Notes under the pieces: model-generated | The model's input: only the letters and a program-made list of their open reading frames with translations | Databases searched by the model: none | Told to the model about the DNA's origin: nothing | Source: Botryllus schlosseri | Lineage: Eukaryota | Reading direction: 5' to 3' | Assembly: GCA_051294905.1 (NCBI GenBank) | Contig: CM119371.1 | Location: 34,474,001-34,538,000, forward strand | DNA: 64,000 nucleotides | Made by a program: the position numbers and the translations under genes | In this document: positions 4,608-55,155 of the stretch, piece after piece | Layout of the letters: every line of letters begins with the position of its first letter | Numbering within the stretch: the first letter of the stretch is position 1

Positions 4608-5063
4608 ATGGCGAAGAATCGACTGCAGTTCGAGTGTCGAAAGATCGCTCAAGAAATACAAGCCAATCCCGAGATTTTACAAGCAGGGCCGCTGGACGAC
4701 TCGAACATCTACGTTTGGCAAGCAATATTGCGCGGACCATCAGAAACACCATACGAGGGCGGAAGATTCCATCTTAGAGTCGAATTTCCAACTGAATATC
4801 CATTCAAGCCCCCCAAAATTAAGTTCGAAACCAAAATTTTCCATCCGAATATAAGTCGAAGGGGTACAGTCTGCGTTGATATACTCGCCAACGAGTGGTC
4901 GCCAGCTTTGACTTTGGTCAAGGTGCTGGTGTCGATTTCATCATTGCTAGCTTCACCGAATCCAGACGACCCAATGGATGCAGAAAGCGCTCGATTGTAC
5001 CAAGAGGATTTCGCGCATTATCAGACAATGGCGAGGAATTGGACGGATACGTATGCCAGATGA
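4608..5063 (+). CDS. Ubiquitin-conjugating enzyme E2, UBE2D/Ubc4-5-like, intronless, 151 aa
   Basis: UBCc motifs GPSETPYEGG, FPTEYPFKPPKIKF, HPN (79-81), catalytic Cys89 in GTVCVDIL, WSPALT, PNPDDP; complete ATG-to-TGA ORF. Confidence 0.95.
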   Translation: MAKNRLQFECRKIAQEIQANPEILQAGPLDDSNIYVWQAILRGPSETPYEGGRFHLRVEFPTEYPFKPPKIKFETKIFHPNISRRGTVCVDILANEWSPALTLVKVLVSISSLLASPNPDDPMDAESARLYQEDFAHYQTMARNWTDTYAR

Positions 5064-17517: not shown

Positions 17518-18214
17518 TTTTAAGCGCTATACTGCCGAGACTCTCGTGTCGATTGGGGAGGGGATTTACCAAGTAGAGGCCCCTATACACTCTCTCGCGA
17601 GTTTCCTTTCTCACACTTTACGTAATACTGCGTTTAATTGTTTAACTATTTCGTAAAGTTACGTTGCTCCATTGGCATAACCGACATCTTTTGAACTCCC
17701 TATACTTGATTGCACCATGATTGCAACACATATCACAACATTTAAGCATCTGTTGCGGTATAAACCGGGTCATTCCGCCAAAATACAGGAGAAATCAGGC
17801 ACTTATCTAGCATTATACGGGAATATTTACAAGTTACTCTTGGAGGTACAGAGCAACAATGTATAAAATTGAATAATATATCCATATTGAAATAAACCCG
17901 AATATTTTCAGCTGACACTTGTCAGAAAAAATCGTCAGCAACGATCGTAGAGAACTGAAAAATTAGTAGTGACTGACGGATACCTCTGACTGTGTCAGCC
18001 CAAAATACTCCGGTTTATTTCAACATGAATAAATTATTGAACAATATATATTTTTTAATTTTCTCTTTGTGTATGTGTCGGTGCTCACACTGTATAATTG
18101 TGTATAATACTACGTTTGTCCCAGAAAAGAAAGCTACTGTAGAGCATCGGTAGATATACGTACTAAACTATAATGGGGTGACGGAGTCAGTTGATTTCGC
18201 AGATTTCCCGTTGA

Positions 18215-18670
18215 ATAGCAAAGAATAGGCTGCGGTTCGAGTGGCGAAAGATTGCTCAAGAAATCCAAGCGAATCCCGAGATTTCACAAGCAGGACCGCT
18301 GGACGACTCGAATATATACGTTTAGCAAGCCATATTGCGCGGACCATCGGAAACACCGTACGAGGGAGGAAGATTCCATCTGAGAGTGGAATTTCCAACA
18401 GAATATCCATTCAAGCCCCCGAAAATCAAATTCGAAACAAAGATTTTCCATCCCAACATTAGTCGGAGGGGTACCGTCTGCGTCGACATCCTCGCCAATG
18501 AGTGGTCGCCAGCTTTGACTTTGGTAAAGGTGCTGGTGTCGATTTCATCATTGCTAGCTTCACCGAATCCGGACGATCCAATGGATGCTGAAAGCGCTAA
18601 GATCTACCAAGAGGACTACATTCGTTATCAGAAGACGGCGAGAAATTGGACGGATACATATGCCAGATGA
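18215..18670 (+). pseudogene. Second copy of the UBE2D-like E2; apparent pseudogene (ATG>ATA, W37 TGG>TAG)
   Basis: 456 nt colinear with 4608-5063 without indels; ATA at 18215-18217, TAG at 18323-18325; HPN and catalytic Cys intact. Confidence 0.85.
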
Positions 18671-19319
18671 ATACATGGATGTTCTGTTTTGGAATAGATA
18701 AAGAGCTAACCAATTTCATACACTGAGCCTATGTTAAGCGTCATACATAAGCTGATCAATGTTTACAGTACATGCTGATGTCAATTAATTTAACATTAAA
18801 TATTTCATTAGCGCTGCCAATACGTTAATTTGATGTTTTCAATCCCACTCATTTAACGTTGTGCATGTATCAAACATGTCAATATCAAACAAATAGTAGA
18901 ATCTTCCAGTTAAAAAATATGATTATATGCATATCATGCGCATACCGAGACTGCATCAAGCAACCTTGGCCCAAGCCTAGTGAGTACAGATAACATCACA
19001 GTGAACTGTACGTTAAAAGTTTGAAGGAAAAGTACGACAACTATAATCGTGACGTGGGAAGCGAATTAAAACTTATAGCGTTGCGTCAAACAGCGCAATA
19101 AGCGCACTCTCGTTCTCGAACTTGTGAAACGCAAAAATAGTAAAATCCCTGTCGCACGATACGATTCACGGAATAGTAATTATTGTTGACGTAAAACTCT
19201 AGGCATGTCGGCGATGTGCCAGTTGGGAGAAATGCAATGTATGAATTTGATGCTCTGGTGCCATCTCACGTATAGATTTCAAGGTGAAATCTTTCTCCCA
19301 GTGGATTAAGCACTGGTCT

Positions 19320-21580
19320 TCATCATCATTCATCATCATTGGTTTATTAGCAATTTTATCAGTTCAATACACCACAAAAATGCGATACAATGAAAAGACA
19401 GGAAGATGTCGAAGCGACAAGGAGTAGTCTATGGAATCTGACACCCACCTTGGCCTAGGCGATGTAAAGAGGAGGCATGCACACTGAATGAAAGTAAAGA
19501 AGATAGTATAGAAAAAGAATGCGACAAGAAATAGGGCGGCATGTCATGGGAAGCGAGATCGATAGGTCAGTCGTGGTCCGGTAATCTTGAGGATGGACTG
19601 TACTTATTTAGTAGTAATTGCTTGTATTTCGACTTGAATGTGGACAGGACATGCTCGTCGACTGTCGGATGGCCGGCGGGATACTGTTCCACACATCAGG
19701 TCCGGCATATTTGATGGAGCGATGATCTTTTCGGTCGATCATATGATATTTGGACGACGTGGACGTGCGCGTGTTGTACTTGTGCGCTTTTGATTCAGAG
19801 GTAAAGAAGTCATTGAAATATTCGGGGCAACGACCGCAGTGAAACTGATACATGAACTTGGCGATTTCTAGTTTCCGCATATCTTCAATGTTTAGGACGC
19901 CGAATCTCTTCAGCAGCGACTTATTGGATGGGCAGCCAGGACCCTTTGGGCCCTAGCTATGATTCGGAGTACTTTATGCTGTAGTTTCTGCAGTGGCTTG
20001 AGTGCAGTTTTACTGGCAGCCCCCCAACAGAGGATGCCATAATGTAACTTCGATTGGATTAAGGATTTAAAGAGTATCAGAAGAACCCATGCTGGCATGA
20101 AGCGCCCAAGGCTGTAGAACAGGCCGCACTTCTGTGATAATTTAGTTTCTAGGGACTGAATATGACTCTTCCAGGACATGTTCGAGTCCAGTAAAACTGA
20201 GGTTGCATTTGGCATTATCTGTGTTGGAAACGGGCTGACCAGCGATATTAACGGTTAGGTTATTTTTTGAATTTACTGTCAGCAATTGCGATTTCGAGGC
20301 GTTTATGCAAAGGTTGTTCTGGGCCGTCCACTCATGGACTTTGGGCATTTGGTCACCAGTCAGGGCATCCAGCTCTGCCGTCGAAGATGCGGAAGAGAGG
20401 AGGTGAGTATCATCAGCGAACAGTGTGGTGTTCAATGAGGAGGTTTCAAAAATGTCGTTGACATATAAGGTGAAAAGGAGCGGTCCAAGTACTGAGCCCT
20501 GGGGCACACCACAGGTCACCGGGTGAGGAGAGGACAAGGTGTCTGAGATCGCAACCATTTGTTGGCGTCCAGTGAGGTAACTTTTCATGAGCTCAAGTTG
20601 CGGGCCCCGAAGTCCGTAACGCGCCAATTTCGAGATGAGAATTTTATGATCTACGGCTACGCAGTCAAACGCTTTTTTTAGGTCGAGAAAAATGCTACAT
20701 CCCACATTTCGCTTCTCTGAGATATCATAGTACTGTTCGGCCACTGTTAGGAGGGCATGAGCGGTTTGGTGTTTGTTTCGGAAGCCAAATTGTTGAGGGG
20801 AAATGACAGACATTTTGGCGAGGAATGAGGACAGGCGGGAGAGGAGTAACTTTTCGAATACTATCCCGATGCATGGGAGAACAGATATCGGACGGTAGTT
20901 GGTGACATTAGTTCTATCCCCAGCTTTGTGTACAGGGACTACTCTGGCTTTTTTTAGATAGCTTGGGTAGACTCCATTTTCTATCATGAAGTTGAAAAAA
21001 TGGGCCATATATTGACCGATATGCAGGCTTTTCATTTTTAAAAACCATGATGGGATTTGGTCATAGCCGTCGGCCTTGTGCGATTTCAGTTTGTGGATGG
21101 CTACTTCTACTTCGTATTTGGTCGTAGATTCAAGCATAATTGACTGGGATATCGATCTCACTTCTGACCTGGCCGACACAGGTTTTGTAATAGAAGAAGC
21201 AATATTTGGGCCTACGTTACAAAAATATTCATTGAAGTGATTCTCGATGGCCGCCGGGTCTGAAAGTTTGTTTCCGGTATCCGAATTCACAATTTCCGAA
21301 GCAGACTTATGGCCTTTTTTTCGATGTAGGAGAGAGTTAAGTCCTGACCATGTTTTTCGAGTGTCCTTTATGCGTCTGTTGAAAAATCTCTCATTGTACT
21401 TTGCTTTTGCCTTGGAAATGAGATGCACGGTGCGATTCCTGAAACGTCGAAATCTTTCTCGTTCATGTTCGGGGCAGTTCTTGGTGTCTATGCGGTTATG
21501 CCACCGGTTACGTTTACGGATAAGTTGAATCAGCTTTGTGGTCATCCACGGATTTCGCTTTAATTTTCTTTAATCTTCTT
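19320..21580 (-). mobile_element. 5'-truncated L2/CR1-group non-LTR retrotransposon (ORF2 reverse transcriptase, frameshifted)
   Basis: ORF 20142-21545: NYRPISVL, QFGFR, FLDLKKAFD, GVPQGSVLGPLLF, LFADD; C-terminus continues in shifted frames (19910-20215, 19608-19880); 3' UTR ends in an (ATG)n-like microsatellite tail at ~19320-19340. Confidence 0.93.
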
Positions 21581-30253: not shown

Positions 30254-30842
30254 TCATATCATCATGATATCATTAATCGTGTTTCGCGTATTCACGTCCG
30301 CACATGTATATCCACGATGCTTTTCACTTCAAAATCCCTTCAGCGGCAGTTTGTGTCACGCCTATATAGTGAATGATGACTGCAAACCTGGTCAATGGTC
30401 ACGCAGAGCAATATGGTTTGTTGAAATGTACCGCACATTTCGTCCTGTTTTGAGATGACTGACATGACTCTTGGGTATTATGAACTAGAAATATGCTAAG
30501 AGGCGTTTGAAACAGACGATTAAAATACAGCCAACAAAAATATATGGAATATATGGATATTCTGGTTAAATTCAACAACCTCAGGAATTAAAATCAAATT
30601 GAGCGACTTTTTCTAGCGATTTTGTTTCAAGATTTAGCGACATCTAGCGATTTTCGACGCCAGTTTTAGCGACTTTTGTCCAGCCGGAGTTGGCAACACT
30701 CGGAACAGCAGCTCAGTGGTTAGAACGCGAACAGAGAACAACTGTGTCATTCATTGCTGTTTGCCGTATATGCCAGACATGATAGTTTGACAGTCGTCGT
30801 CAGCATTTAGCATATAACAAAAAGCCGTGTGTCAACTCGCTT

Positions 30843-31757
30843 ATGGTCATGAAGGACGAAACAGTACCGAGAGCGACTACTTCGCTACAGCAACCCGACG
30901 ACCTCGACGCCTTGATTGACATGGCGATGAAACTTGCCATGAATAGTGAGCAAGACGCGGGAGAGCCAAGCGTAGTTTATGCAGAAGAAATAACTAATAA
31001 TGATGATGTTTCTGAAACGATACGGTCGACCCAGGCTTACGAAGGCGGAGATCGATGTAGGCCCAATGATGCTGTCCCGCCGTTGATGGCGGCTGCATGT
31101 GGCTTTCCCCCAAGTTACGACCAACGTATGATTCATCAACAACAACATCATGGTGCGTTTTTTAGCGGATATCCCACCATATCTCCTGGATTACCTTGTG
31201 GAGCTCCAGATATAATGCCTTTTGCTCAAGAAAAATATCCTTCATATGCAAATAAACACGATGAACAGGTCGAAAAATCGAATGATACTTTATCTGCTTT
31301 TATTACTTATATGAAATATAACAATGATAGCGCCGTTATATCGGATGTATACAACATTGTGTCTTCTCTGCGAGATAATGGAATTTCGGTTCATGTTGAT
31401 TACAATGAAGAATCGATGCGGGGAGTTAACATGAACATGTGGTTGGATGATAACATTGAAAATAGCACGGTCGTGATAGTCTGTGTTGATCCCAAGTTTA
31501 AAACTGCCTTGAGATCCTCTGATCCTAATTCGGACGTGGATGAAAATTGTAACGCCGAGTGTCTTTATGTTATGGAAAACCTGCTGACCAAGCACCGCAA
31601 CGACGGGTGTCGCAACTACAATGTTCTTCCTGTGCTTATTGCGGGTTCGAAACATTCGCATTTGCCTACTTGGTTGCAGAATACGAATGTCTACCGATGG
31701 CCCAAAACGGAAGAAAATCTGATTCAGCGAATTTTAGGATTGAGAGCGACTAATTAA
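30843..31757 (+). CDS. TRAF3IP2: SEFIR-domain adaptor, Act1/CIKS (TRAF3IP2)-like, intronless, 304 aa
   Basis: C-terminal half follows the Act1 SEFIR pattern: AFITY, LRDNGISVHVD..EESMRGVNMNMWLD, VIVCVDPKFK, GCRNYNVLPVL, HLPTWLQNTNVYRWPK; low-complexity N-terminus; no TM segment or signal peptide evident. Confidence 0.88.
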   Translation: MVMKDETVPRATTSLQQPDDLDALIDMAMKLAMNSEQDAGEPSVVYAEEITNNDDVSETIRSTQAYEGGDRCRPNDAVPPLMAAACGFPPSYDQRMIHQQQHHGAFFSGYPTISPGLPCGAPDIMPFAQEKYPSYANKHDEQVEKSNDTLSAFITYMKYNNDSAVISDVYNIVSSLRDNGISVHVDYNEESMRGVNMNMWLDDNIENSTVVIVCVDPKFKTALRSSDPNSDVDENCNAECLYVMENLLTKHRNDGCRNYNVLPVLIAGSKHSHLPTWLQNTNVYRWPKTEENLIQRILGLRATN

Positions 31758-33394: not shown

Positions 33395-34279
33395 ATGGCT
33401 AATTTAGCGACTTCGCTTTCCATCGTGAAAGAACTGCACCGTCTCGCTAGAATTCCCAGTAATCGACAGTACATGCTACGTAACGATGTCAACTCCTTGT
33501 TGATATTTGTGGACCCCGATGAACAGCACCCGTCTGTAATCGTAGAAGCGCTAAAAGCTTTGCGTTGTCTGGCGCAGGAAGCCGTCAGTAGCGAGAGTCT
33601 ATTGTCTCGCTTTCAAAATACGGTCGGACTTCAGACGCTGCTGCAGAAGATCTCACAGCGTGACGGATTCAACGAGGAATGTAAAAAGGCCGCGTCTGAG
33701 ATCTTGTTTTTGAGCAAATGTAACCCAGCTCCTCAGCATGTAACGAAAGAGCAGCAGAGCGCGGGGGTTATAACTCGTGCTGGGATGCGTGCGGCACGCA
33801 AAACCAATCCAAAGGAACCAGTTAAATTCCTAGGGGGGAATAAAAAAGCAAAAATAATACAGCTTCAAATCGAAGGTCTTGACAGTGAGGATAAGAAGCA
33901 GGAATGCATCAATGAACTTCTGAGAGTAACCGGTGTGATTTCGATCACTTTCAACATGGGCGTGCAAAGGTGTATGATACGCGCGCGCGCCGATATGCAC
34001 GCCGAAAGTTTGGTGCACGCTATTCACAACACGCGGAAAATGTCTGCGAAACAAGTGATTAAAAACGAATCCGGGGAAGAAGTGCTTGTTTCGTTTGACG
34101 ATAAGGAGTTTGCGGATGAGTTGCCGCCCTATTTGGACGAAGACGCGGGAGAATCGCCGAATAAAGAGGAGAATAAGCAAAGCGTTGCCAGACCTGGATA
34201 TACGGAAGCCGTCGGCAGTTTTGCGAAGTCGTGGTTTGGTAGCGTGGTTAACGCTGTAAATAAGAATTTATACTGGTGA
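33395..34279 (+). CDS. ARMC1: Armadillo repeat-containing protein 1, intronless CDS, 294 aa
   Basis: Matches ARMC1 end to end: SLSIVKELHRLA, ALKALRCLA, FLGGNKKAKIIQLQIEGLD, GVISITFNMGVQRC, KNESGEEVLVSF, LPPYL, terminal NLYW. True start taken as ATG 33395, not the GTG at 33203. Confidence 0.95.
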   Translation: MANLATSLSIVKELHRLARIPSNRQYMLRNDVNSLLIFVDPDEQHPSVIVEALKALRCLAQEAVSSESLLSRFQNTVGLQTLLQKISQRDGFNEECKKAASEILFLSKCNPAPQHVTKEQQSAGVITRAGMRAARKTNPKEPVKFLGGNKKAKIIQLQIEGLDSEDKKQECINELLRVTGVISITFNMGVQRCMIRARADMHAESLVHAIHNTRKMSAKQVIKNESGEEVLVSFDDKEFADELPPYLDEDAGESPNKEENKQSVARPGYTEAVGSFAKSWFGSVVNAVNKNLYW

Positions 34280-47380: not shown

Positions 47381-48278
47381 TATAGTTATTGACTTTGACA
47401 TGTTCATGGAGAGCCCTGATTGGTGATGGCCAATTGGCCATGTTGTAGAGTATGGTTAAAAAAAAAGTACATTAGAGAGTGGACGTGGTGAGTGTTATCA
47501 CGGACAGTTAGTCATGCATGGTTCGTATTCATGGAAAATATTGTAATTTCAGTGAGGAATTGCGCTTCAGGATGATAAAGTAGAGGAACATGTACCTGAA
47601 TGGTAATATCATATCTCAGAATTATTTCATTTTTAGTCAGAACTGTAAAGCCTTGAATTGGACAACTGTGAACCTGAACACTTATTTGCCTGGTTTCGTG
47701 TGGTGACACAATGTGTTCGTGATTGTCTTCAAGGCGTTATAGTTCTTCTGCCACGAAAATGAATAATTTTGTGAAACCCTGTACACTGTGTTCAGGTTAT
47801 AGGGCAGAAATATATATTTACTTTGTTAGGGACTTGGGGTTAGAGTTCAAGGTTTGGATAGGGGTTGACTAGGATTAGAAGATGCAAAGTGCTGAATTCA
47901 ATACAACCAGGGTTGTAACCAAGTGGAAAGTCAATCATAGACTTGAGTCAGGTCGAGGTCAAGGTGCAAAGGGTCGAGTCCAAGTCATACTATCGAGACT
48001 TTAAAGAATTGAGTCTGCTGTTTGGTCACAATGAGATGCCTGTCTGCCCGTCCGAGTCTCAAGTCATATGACAATTCGAGTCAATACGCAAATTGACTCG
48101 AGTCAGTTGTTTTCCATATCTAAGAAAATTACGGCCCGGATTACAACAGCAAAGGTTTTGAAGATTTGATGAACGACGTCTTTTGTGTTGACTCTTCTAC
48201 GCAGATTCTATAACTAGAACGAGACTTTTTACCTGAAACTGTCATTACATAATTTACGGCAGCAACGTACCGAAGACT

Positions 48279-49502
48279 ATGACTCCCAACTCCAATGTGT
48301 GTGAGATTTGCGGGAAAGTGTTCAAATCACCGCTGCACCTTCAATCGCACGAGGTTATTCACACCGGGGTGAAAGCGTACAAGTGTGATATCTGCGGAAA
48401 AGCATTTGTAAATAGTTCGGTACTGTACAAACATTTATTATATCACTCTGACATCAGACGGTTTCGGTGTGAGATATGCCACAAGGCATTCCGTCAAAAG
48501 GCCCACTTGAATACGCACATGCTTGCTCATTCCGGTGTCAAAGAACATAAATGTGACATCTGCAATAAGGAATTTCGTCAAAAAGCACACTTGAGAACGC
48601 ATATGCTCGGAGTTCATTCCGGCATCAGGAGATATAAATGTGATATCTGCGCCAAGGAGTTTCTTATCACTCAAAATTTGAAAAAGCACAAAAAAACTCA
48701 TCTTGATGTCGATAAGCATGACTGCGAAATCTGTGGAAAGGCAATGGCTTCGCACGAAATGTTGAAATACCACTTGAAAGCCCACATGGGAATCAGAGAA
48801 TATGTGTGCAGCGTATGTGGTAAAGGGTTTATTCTTCGGAGCCAACTAACGAGCCATTCGCTAATTCACGCCGACGCCGTGCAACATTGCTGTGAGATAT
48901 GCGGCAAGTATTTTCGTCATAAATCACTGTTAACTGCTCACATGCGCAGTCATCTTGGTATGAAACCGATCAAAAGATTCATTTGCGAGATATGCGGTAT
49001 AAAATTTCTTCGAGACGGGGAGTTGATGATGCACATGAAAATTCATATTGAATGCAAGGATCAAGAATGCGATGTATATGGGATGGCTTTCGCTTCCAAG
49101 TCGAAATTGACGCGTGATTTGCCAAGTCATGGCTACGTGCAACAGTGCTGGTATCGATGTGTCATATGCGACAAGAAATTTCGTGATAAATTTGCTTTGA
49201 ACAGTCATATGGGCATTCATTCAGTCGCGGATTGTAGCGAAGAATTCACTTGTGAGGTCTGCGGCAAAGGATTTACTCGACTCCGTTACTTGCAAAAGCA
49301 CACGCGAATTCATACTGGAGTCAAAGATTATAGATGTGGTGTATGCGGGAAGGCTTTCATTGCAAACTACAAACTCGTACGTCATTCGCTAACTCATATT
49401 CGCATCAAGCGTCATCGCTGTGACATTTGCAATGTGGCATTCGGGCAACAATCAAGTTTAAATTTACACATGCAAAAGCATTTACCCTCAGCAAGCATTT
49501 GA
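48279..49502 (+). CDS. Tandem C2H2 zinc-finger protein, 14 fingers (finger 10 degenerate), no recognisable effector domain
   Basis: Repeated CxxC-x12-HxxxH with TGVK/SGVK/SGIR linkers; finger 10 reads CDVY...RDLPSH; in-frame stop shortly upstream of the ATG. Confidence 0.92.
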   Translation: MTPNSNVCEICGKVFKSPLHLQSHEVIHTGVKAYKCDICGKAFVNSSVLYKHLLYHSDIRRFRCEICHKAFRQKAHLNTHMLAHSGVKEHKCDICNKEFRQKAHLRTHMLGVHSGIRRYKCDICAKEFLITQNLKKHKKTHLDVDKHDCEICGKAMASHEMLKYHLKAHMGIREYVCSVCGKGFILRSQLTSHSLIHADAVQHCCEICGKYFRHKSLLTAHMRSHLGMKPIKRFICEICGIKFLRDGELMMHMKIHIECKDQECDVYGMAFASKSKLTRDLPSHGYVQQCWYRCVICDKKFRDKFALNSHMGIHSVADCSEEFTCEVCGKGFTRLRYLQKHTRIHTGVKDYRCGVCGKAFIANYKLVRHSLTHIRIKRHRCDICNVAFGQQSSLNLHMQKHLPSASI

Positions 49503-52704: not shown

Positions 52705-55155
52705 TTGCAATCAATCAGGTTTCTTAATATTTTCATCGTTTCAAAACATCACAAGACTGCGATACAATGAAAAGATAGGAAGGTGTCGAAACAACTTGGA
52801 GTAGCCTTTAATATCAGACACCCACCTTAGCCTAGGCGAAGTAAAGAAGAGGCATGCGCACTGAATGCAAAGTAATGCAGAGAATATAAGACGCAAGCGA
52901 CAAAATGAGGTGGCATGTGGCGGAGGGCGAGGTCGGTGTTAGGTCGTGGTCCGGTAATCGTGAAGACTGGCTAGTATTCATTTAGAAGAAATTGCTTGTA
53001 TTTCGACTTGAATGTGGACATGCTCGACGACTGTCGGATAGCCGGCGAGATGCTGTTCCACAATTGGGGTCCGGCATACTTGATAGAGCAATGCGTTTTC
53101 TTGTATTCAGTCCTGATCATCTGGTAGTTTTTCTTCGTTGACGCGCGTGTGGTGTACTTGTGCGCTTTTGTCTCCGAGGTGAAGTAGTCGTTGAAATTTG
53201 AGGGACATTGACCGCAATGGAACTGATACATAAACATTGCAATTTCTAGCTTCCTCATATCTTCTAAGTTTAAAACACCAAATCTTTTGAGAAGCGATTT
53301 ATCAGTTGCACATCCAGGCCCCCATGGGGCTTTGGCAATGATACAGATGATCCGATGTTGACGTTTTTGCAGAGGGTCAATTGTATTCTTGAAGGCGGCA
53401 CCCCAACAAAGAATTCCGTATTGTAACTTTGATAGGAATAGAGCAGCGGTTCTCAACCGGGGGTCCGCGGAGCAATTTCAGGGGGTCCGCGAGACCTCTA
53501 AATTTTTAAAATGATTGATAACCTCATTTCTATTTTATTTTTTAATTTGAGAAAGCATGAGGCAGTTTCGCACCACAACTGCTAAAACCTCGTGACTCAT
53601 ATCATCATCATAATCGTCTGACATGAACTATCGTAGTGTGGAAATTCATTTCCATTGCCAATTTTCCAATAGCCTGCTGATACAAACAAATTACTGTTTA
53701 GAGACGTTTTGTTGGGGTTTGTGGAAAAAATTAAAATATGGAGATAGTAACGTCAATCAGGGTGACTTTGTAATGTCTGCAAAACCTTCTCATCAATATG
53801 AAGTTGTCAGTCTCATCACATTAGTGAACAGTCGTTTGAAATAAATAATTTGCGAAGTATTTCCCGAATTTGTCCCAATGCAGCGATTGAAACCTCGCCA
53901 CGAAATCCATTTTATCCTGTGATATACGTAACCACTATTTGAAGAGCTTCTTGGAGGTACAGAACTTCAGTATACAATTGAATTGTATATTCATATTGAA
54001 ATGAACCCGAATATTTACGGCTGGCACTCGTCATAAATCGGACAATGATATACCCACTCTTAAAGCTCGGCTATCAGATTTGGCGTAATCCTATTGCGGA
54101 TGCCCTATCGACAACGCTGTTTTTTTGATGAACAAGGAGTGTTTTGTTGCTGTTGAAGCATTACACTCCAACCCTGAAATTCATATCACCAGTTATATTG
54201 GTATGCAGCCTTGTCTTGTTAATGTTCAATTGTTCATGGTCGAAAATGTTTGCTCGTAAATATATGTGTAAACCCAAACAGAGCAATTCGTTTCATGACA
54301 TTCTCTCTGAGGTTGGAAAACTTGGATCCATTCTTTGGCGCATAAATTTTGTCTATAATTTTAGATTAGGATTTCACTTTGACGGTATAGAAACTCTCTG
54401 CGGGCCGATCAAAATGCCGTCACGGGCCGAATCCGCCCCGCGGTGCATATGTTGCCCGTCCTTGCGCTAGATGCTGGGCGTGATATGTTCATAAAAGATA
54501 TGTTTCTTCATTTTGGTGCCATAAATGTTGCGATCACACCAAAAGTATCGTCGGAAGCGTTATGCGGGGGGCAGACTAGATGACCTCATGGGGCCGTATC
54601 GCAACTCCGTCGCCAAAGCATCTCGATGGTGCAGGCGAAAAAGAATATCATATCTCTCTCTCTCTGCGTTAATATTGCATTAGCCTCCATCTATCTTTGC
54701 GAAAATGGTTTTCGGCACATATCTCGTTCATATCAAAACGAAGACGCGGATTTTCAAGACACGACCACGTACTTCAAGAAATACAGCAGCGAAATTAGCT
54801 TTGAAATAATAAAGTCTACCAATTTCTACATAAATAGTATGCTGTTATTTTCAAGAAAAATCAAAATTTTGCTGTTTATCAAAAGCCTACAGTTCATAAT
54901 TGCGCAAGACAGATGAAGGTTGGACCATAATAGAGCTAAAATTGAACTAAAACTTGAGGGGGTCCGCGAGGGTCCGTGACGGTCAAAAGGGGTCCGCGAA
55001 GCTAAAAAGGTTGAGAACCACTGGAATAGAGTGTTGAAGAGTATCAACAGCACGCTGACTGGCAGAGTGTAGCTAAGGCGGCGAAATAGACCACATACCT
55101 TCGACTTCGATAGTTGTGGTTTGAGTATTTGTATGTGACTCTTCCAGGACATGTG
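52705..55155 (-). mobile_element. Second, diverged 5'-truncated L2-like LINE, split by a hAT insertion
   Basis: Peptides MSWKSHIQ...VLLILFNTLF (55152-55024) and LSKLQYGILCWG...FKSKYKQFLLNEY (53435-52971) join when 53444-55023 and one TSD copy are removed; 3' UTR like 19340-19600. Confidence 0.88.
53444..55023. mobile_element. Charlie-like hAT element inserted in the LINE
   Basis: TIR CAGCGGTTCTCAACC...GGTTGAGAACCACTG; perfect TSD GAATAGAG. Confidence 0.92.

Follow-up and report, generated by a model that had tools for sequence, protein, structure and literature searches.

The broken copy and its surroundings

What occupies positions 18215–18670 of the window, the whole stretch of 64,000 nucleotides analysed here? 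The forward strand (+) carries an intronless, UBE2D-like E2 pseudogene of 151 codons with no insertions or deletions, a C-type copy of a tandem array, referred to below as L005. Its start codon is lost, with ATA at 18215–18217 (+), and its codon 37 is a premature TAG stop at 18323–18325 (+). Both lesions are read from the sequence and again from contigs of the sequencing runs X3 and X6. An in-frame TGA directly 5′ of the ATA, at 18212–18214, means that no in-frame start lies upstream. At codon 37 the five nearest intact sisters all have Trp and none has TAG. 3′ of the stop the HPN motif (codons 79–81) and the catalytic Cys89 are intact on alignment to UBE2D2 (18449–18481, +). The sole remaining in-frame, ATG-started frame encodes 29 amino acids (18581–18670, +) and lacks the catalytic Cys. 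As it stands, L005 retains UBC-fold sequence with its HPN and catalytic Cys and has no frame open from start to stop.

The sequence on either side of L005 is homologous to that of two intact C-type copies, L004 and L006. The 5′ homology (18091–18214, +) ends about 124 nt before the lost start; the 3′ homology extends over 18671–18946 (+), and the whole unit is 82–84% identical. The 3′ flank shared with both sisters points to a duplication at the DNA level. A MITE-like repeat with 64-nt inverted arms and many genomic copies lies at 17855–18055, 160 nt 5′ of the lost start. The 5′ homology ends beside it, so loss of the promoter is possible, and the repeat may have cut it.

Directly 3′ of L005 is decayed reverse-transcriptase sequence (19341–21569, −), presumably LINE-type to judge from its motifs, with a related fragment at 52718–53477. 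Elsewhere in the window are three long single-exon frames, all on the forward strand: an ARMC1-like gene at 33398–34279, 78% identical to that of Styela clava and 51–53% to those of Ciona, Phallusia and Clavelina; a C2H2 zinc-finger array at 48237–49502; and a frame of 323 amino acids at 30786–31757, which may encode a domain of SEFIR/TIR type. From the ARMC1-like identities the host is most likely a styelid sea squirt. An exact look-up of two window proteins gave no match.

The tandem array

Of 126 candidates scored in a genome search, 115 were E2 matches. The tandem array of intronless UBE2D-like E2 genes accounts for 23 matches over 370 kb (C1:34121100-34492667), the last of them L005, and seven of the 23 are broken, L005 included. 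One further array copy has Ser at the position of the catalytic Cys. In a quick protein tree the array subfamily groups apart from the genome's UBE2D-like genes L072, L073 and L075.

The copies follow one another in the order A, B, C, B′, C′ on C1 and A, B, C on the side contig C148. The order on C1 suggests that a B+C pair was duplicated, and C148 probably represents the A-B-C segment on another haplotype. Between the loci L033–L035 (G000:C148) and C1:34458175-34473700 flank identity is only about 85–88%. The far end of C148 matches repeats only.

The closest sisters and the changes private to L005

Which intact gene is the proper standard for L005? The original prediction had used the B-type paralogue at 4608–5063 (+), which is intact (Pfam UQ_con, E 1.9e-48) and whose best solved relative, UBE2D2 (E 5e-49), aligns with it at the HPN motif and the catalytic Cys. 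It is not the closest relative. It differs from L005 at 55 nucleotides, against 24 for the intact L004 (G000:C1:34468947), which lies 5 kb before the window, and 30 for the intact L006 on C148. A tree built from the DNA of 30 copies places the 4608 copy elsewhere, in a group of its own with full support. L005 groups with L004 and L006, with each of which it shares 0.8–0.9 kb of gene plus flank at the identity given above. With L004 nearer, the 4608 copy is ruled out as the parent of L005.

The codon comparison with the 4608 copy was nonetheless accurate. The alignment is indel-free, the ATA and the TAG stand where they were reported, and codons 41–128 contain exactly 24 synonymous and no non-synonymous codon differences, as claimed. 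What changes with the nearer paralogue is the meaning of these differences. Most of the silent ones are older than L005; only five silent changes are private to it. Q7R, C10W and L24S are present, as had been noted, but C10W and L24S are not decay: intact L004 has both W10 and S24, and intact L006 has W10. The original comparison had also left out seven amino-acid differences at codons 129–141 (R129K, L130I, F135Y, A136I, H137R, T140K and M141T).

The changes private to L005 number nine: M1I, Q7R, W37stop, M130I and five silent changes at codons 62, 75, 80, 125 and 148. Private letters include G18234, A18400, A18439, T18589 and C18604. G-to-A transitions make up four of the nine, two of these being silent. 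The sharing of silent sites among the sisters is patchy, and gene conversion among them could blur which changes are private.

A conserved core with variable ends is also the pattern of intact sister pairs. Between L001 and L004, both intact, the core holds 26 synonymous and two non-synonymous codon differences, and the C-terminal part three and nine, respectively. With the lesions set aside, the two private missense changes of L005 miss codons 38–128 with p 0.17, and three changes with p 0.07, the boundary of this core having been chosen after the fact.

How recently did L005 die? The dS of its branch is 0.051, and a branch neutral throughout would be expected to carry about 11 missense changes in the core. 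None is seen. It follows that L005 was functional for most of its branch and that its death was recent; the 95% bound on the neutral part of the branch is 28%. The branch omega of 0.22, which comes from only nine private changes, reflects the earlier functional period of the gene.

Nine broken copies of the array and side contig were compared with intact sisters, and only L005 has lesions that are purely G-to-A. The other eight have stops arising by G-to-T or C-to-T, frameshifts or truncation, none of them reversible by A-to-I editing. Given the transition bias seen here, two G-to-A lesions in L005 have a post-hoc p of about 0.04–0.06. That both are G-to-A is the sole residual oddity, and a mild one. 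A GG-to-AG deaminase signature, with both lesions TGG to TAG in the DNA, was considered and found no support; the other two private G-to-A changes lie at CpG.

Sequencing reads

Four runs were examined among the 24 listed: X3, X6, X21 and X24. The listing named no RNA run as containing L005, which carries no weight in either direction. Contigs of X3 and X6, which are different samples from different studies, are identical to the window across both lesions, with 18217 lying 18 bases from a contig end in X6 and 18324 lying 23 bases from one in X3; one of the two runs may be the source of the assembly itself. Recurrence in contigs of two runs indicates that the lesions are real. X6, a run of unrecorded kind, also holds contigs of L004 type and B type, and it covers L005 mostly at 18079–18556 and not at 18610–19136.

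Of the two RNA runs, X21 placed no reads on the region, which leaves X24 as the informative one. In X24, about 6% of which was read, 163 reads were placed, one of them at 99% identity or better; this run is from another individual without matched DNA, which may lack L005. At 18324, 17 of 17 reads have G, and each carries at least two other differences. The mismatch places are mixed in class (A>G 11, G>A 12, C>T 7, T>C 7), and cross-mapped paralogues would give such a mixture. Consistent with that origin, 37 of the 38 checked coding-region differences, among those listed, are letters of assembled paralogues; the matches listed comprise 40 of 66 difference rows, and 18217 is not among them. None of the reads shows the private letter of L005 at 18234 (18 reads), 18589 (37), 18604 (10) or 18658 (6). 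At 18439, where A is found only in L005 among six assembled sisters, five of 19 reads lack the paralogue letter, so the negative is not a clean one. The four runs yielded neither splice joints nor copy-specific RNA.

Seven X24 reads 5′ of the start carry L004 letters; from these an intact C-type sister appears to be transcribed. L004 differs from L005 at few places in the 5′ half, and this makes a useful caution for editing calls: at 18217, 18324 and 18370 L004 reads would pass for A-to-I edited ones if they were not phased with 18226, 18234 and 18376.

Probable recent pseudogenisation and its alternatives

L005 is very probably an ordinary young duplicated pseudogene, a recently inactivated member of a tandem array that turns over by birth and death. 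This was the default among three readings originally proposed, and it is the one that the analysis supports; against the right paralogue little chance clustering need be invoked. A DNA-level duplication of the B+C gene pair would have created L005, and purifying selection would then have maintained it along most of its branch. One G-to-A transition would have killed it and the second would have followed neutrally. With the time since death at most about a quarter of the branch, the core would not yet have been hit. L005 would make no enzyme, its sisters supplying the activity.

Birth-and-death evolution of multigene families, with its non-processed pseudogenes, is a familiar concept, and the array resembles such families in its tandem arrangement, near-identical intact sisters, homologous flanks and many broken copies. 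The nonsense and start-loss lesions are a further shared feature. L005 differs in being very young, and so has no indels and an untouched core; the E2 family differs in being carried by a mobile element as well. By comparison with the UBE2D/UbcH5/Ubc4 class-I E2 enzymes, the array genes are alike in their UQ_con domain, HPN and catalytic Cys. They differ as a divergent and intronless subfamily, of which L005 is untranslatable as it stands.

Might L005 serve a purpose without being translated? Its unedited transcript could act as an RNA decoy or small-RNA source, or the copy could donate sequence to its sisters by gene conversion. The patchy sharing of silent sites is what gene conversion would give, and the coverage in X6, mostly of the coding part and 5′ flank, fits a transcript if X6 is RNA; the same pattern fits low-coverage DNA equally well. 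With no copy-specific X24 reads at the four private sites and no structure signal in the fold test described below, we consider a non-coding role very improbable.

Could the enzyme instead be restored by editing? In some tissue or stage ADAR edits would turn both adenosines into inosine, giving an inosine-containing start codon and a Trp codon, and protein would be made only where editing is active. Both lesions, being G-to-A, are in principle reversible in this way, and both fall in the UAG triplet that ADAR prefers by its neighbours. Genes with an adenosine-deaminase domain are present in the genome: 11 matches on four contigs, each of which may be ADAR or ADAT. At the amber/W site of hepatitis delta virus, UAG is recoded to UIG by ADAR, which needs a long duplex around the site. 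The triplet change is in principle the same in L005, but no long duplex was found. The region folds no better than shuffled sequence (z −0.98), mean pairing is about 0.5 near both sites, and the best antisense match within 8000–28500 of the window, about 10 kb on each side, is 9–10 nt. No antisense paralogue occurs in the stretches searched, and neither site lies inside the 25 longest of 101 inverted repeats. Nor did the one informative RNA run provide a copy-specific edited read: the 17 G-bearing reads at 18324 are those with other differences, and in the run A>G is roughly on a par with G>A, C>T and T>C. Two edits on one molecule would be needed, and all they would yield is a protein almost the same as that of an intact sister 23 kb distant.

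Precedents exist for each half of such a repair. In reporters the AUI codon can initiate, in the order AUA < AUI < AUG (PMC13542072). Fusarium graminearum has pseudogenes whose premature stops are restored by editing, and these are like L005 in having an in-frame TAG for Trp upstream of the conserved domain core (PMC10776026). Editing is observed there, with a median of 79%; it is specific to a stage, and most of the stops are conserved from species to species. In L005, by contrast, no editing is seen; the stop belongs to this one young duplicate, which has lost its start as well. If editing did restore both sites, L005 would be an unusual animal enzyme, gated by the repair of start and stop together. 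We judge this very improbable, a little more so than a non-coding role. A leaky AUA start combined with read-through of the stop, which is followed by CAA, was also rejected; the two inefficiencies would multiply. Stop read-through would, moreover, not insert Trp.

A further proposal was that the new TAG acts as a splice acceptor, in cis or in trans, with codons 38–151 kept as a coding exon. The AG is new and in phase 0. It is also unremarkable: the pyrimidine fraction before the AG at 18324–18325 is 0.53, which ranks 10 of 43 AGs, and at 18325/6 no joint or loose-end signal was found except adapter-like sequence. After trans-splicing the first ATG (18498) would be out of frame, and the first in-frame one (18581) opens only the 29-residue frame without Cys89, though an exon far upstream might supply a start. 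M130I, one of the two private missense changes, lies within the supposed exon. Without residues 1–37 the protein would also lack helix 1 and the opening strands of its UBC fold, as aligned to UBE2D2. This proposal is weaker again than editing. That the lesions are assembly errors in an intact gene, suggested by the otherwise nearly undamaged state of L005, is scarcely credible when short-read contigs from X3 and X6, different samples and studies, are exact across both sites.

Sister E2 genes inside a giant reverse-transcriptase element

Recent pseudogenisation in the array would account for L005 itself. Sister E2 genes also ride in more than 25 copies of a reverse-transcriptase element of 30–45 kb, on many chromosomes. 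The 24 dispersed E2 copies L007–L030 stand at 77–82% protein identity, and in three all-against-one comparisons their flanks match one another at 85–99%.

In one example (L036–L039, G000:C10:14410229-14447699) all genes are on one strand. The first part comprises an IS1595/Merlin-type DDE gene, a protein of 838 amino acids, another of 1157 amino acids and an LRR protein. There follow a second IS1595-type DDE gene, an IAP (three BIR and a RING), small ORFs and the E2. At the end are a gag-like ORF, in which a zinc knuckle is weakly matched, and a pol whose domains are RT, RNase H and Tpt1/KptA. An integrase search of the pol gave no match, and neither the 838-residue nor the 1157-residue protein matched a family. 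Two database proteins share the RT-RNase H-KptA layout. The element termini were not found within the one example copy. A P-element/THAP9-type transposase frame of 665 amino acids lies near the example element (L041:3545-5539, −).

The arrangement recurs. The 838-residue gene is upstream in 29 of 32 tabulated dispersed E2 copies, and in 26 of the 32 pol is also downstream on the same strand, a lower bound since 42 of 1685 pol candidates were scored. More than 20 copies also have the second DDE gene, a few kb ahead of the E2. In four related elements pol is followed by a DDE match and then by an 838-residue-type gene within 5 kb (G000:C12:25764371-25771459, C1:24296986-24304083, C3:30331505-30338592 and C16:20592405-20599515). 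Judged by gene order, these look like gag-pol-integrase-env elements with a Merlin-type transposase at the integrase position, and the E2-bearing copies look circularly permuted.

What is the 838-residue protein? It had no Pfam or PDB sequence match, and its model (pLDDT 56) had no fold match at E 0.001. It has long helical segments, and its Atlas features match viral fusion proteins weakly, below the recognition threshold. It is a probable envelope protein, a role that we offer as no more than a lead. Tunicates are known to have Ty3/gypsy elements that carry an envelope gene (PMC13524379), and the supplementary element tables of that paper could bear on the novelty of the element. DIRS and HEART are known reverse-transcriptase elements without the standard integrase route (PMC12440569). 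Our search of the literature, outside whose reach lay most subscription papers, Repbase and supplements, found no description of the element layout or of the E2 expansion.

How are the array and the element related? The E2 genes of the element belong to a single clade (99/99), nested in the group to which array types A, B and C belong. For the direction of transfer p-AU is 0.38, which does not separate the two directions, and the protein tree is a quick tree only. The DNA of the example element does not match the array stretches compared except in the E2 coding sequence and one short repeat. With no further DNA shared, the window copy L005 is not part of an element.

Two further dispersed sets consist of near-identical intronless E2 genes (for example G000:C2:36471334 and C11:4524295; L068–L071 and L074). 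They are 53–57% identical to the window protein, with about nine and about 11 rows of identical or near-identical scores, and copies of this type group with D-type array genes in the quick tree. They are probably cargo of other repeated elements.

It is a serious possibility, somewhat short of an even chance, that this E2 subfamily was exchanged between the host array and an apparently undescribed giant reverse-transcriptase element. Its pol would end in Tpt1/KptA without a recognisable integrase, its two IS1595/Merlin-type DDE genes maybe serving integration, and it would have a probable envelope and a cargo of IAP and E2. What is established of this is the linkage. On such a view the array would either have given the element its E2 cargo or consist of domesticated copies with a birth-and-death turnover. 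L005 itself matters little, as one more young pseudogene in an expanded family. The value of following it up lies in the multi-copy reverse-transcriptase element that carries its sister E2 genes.
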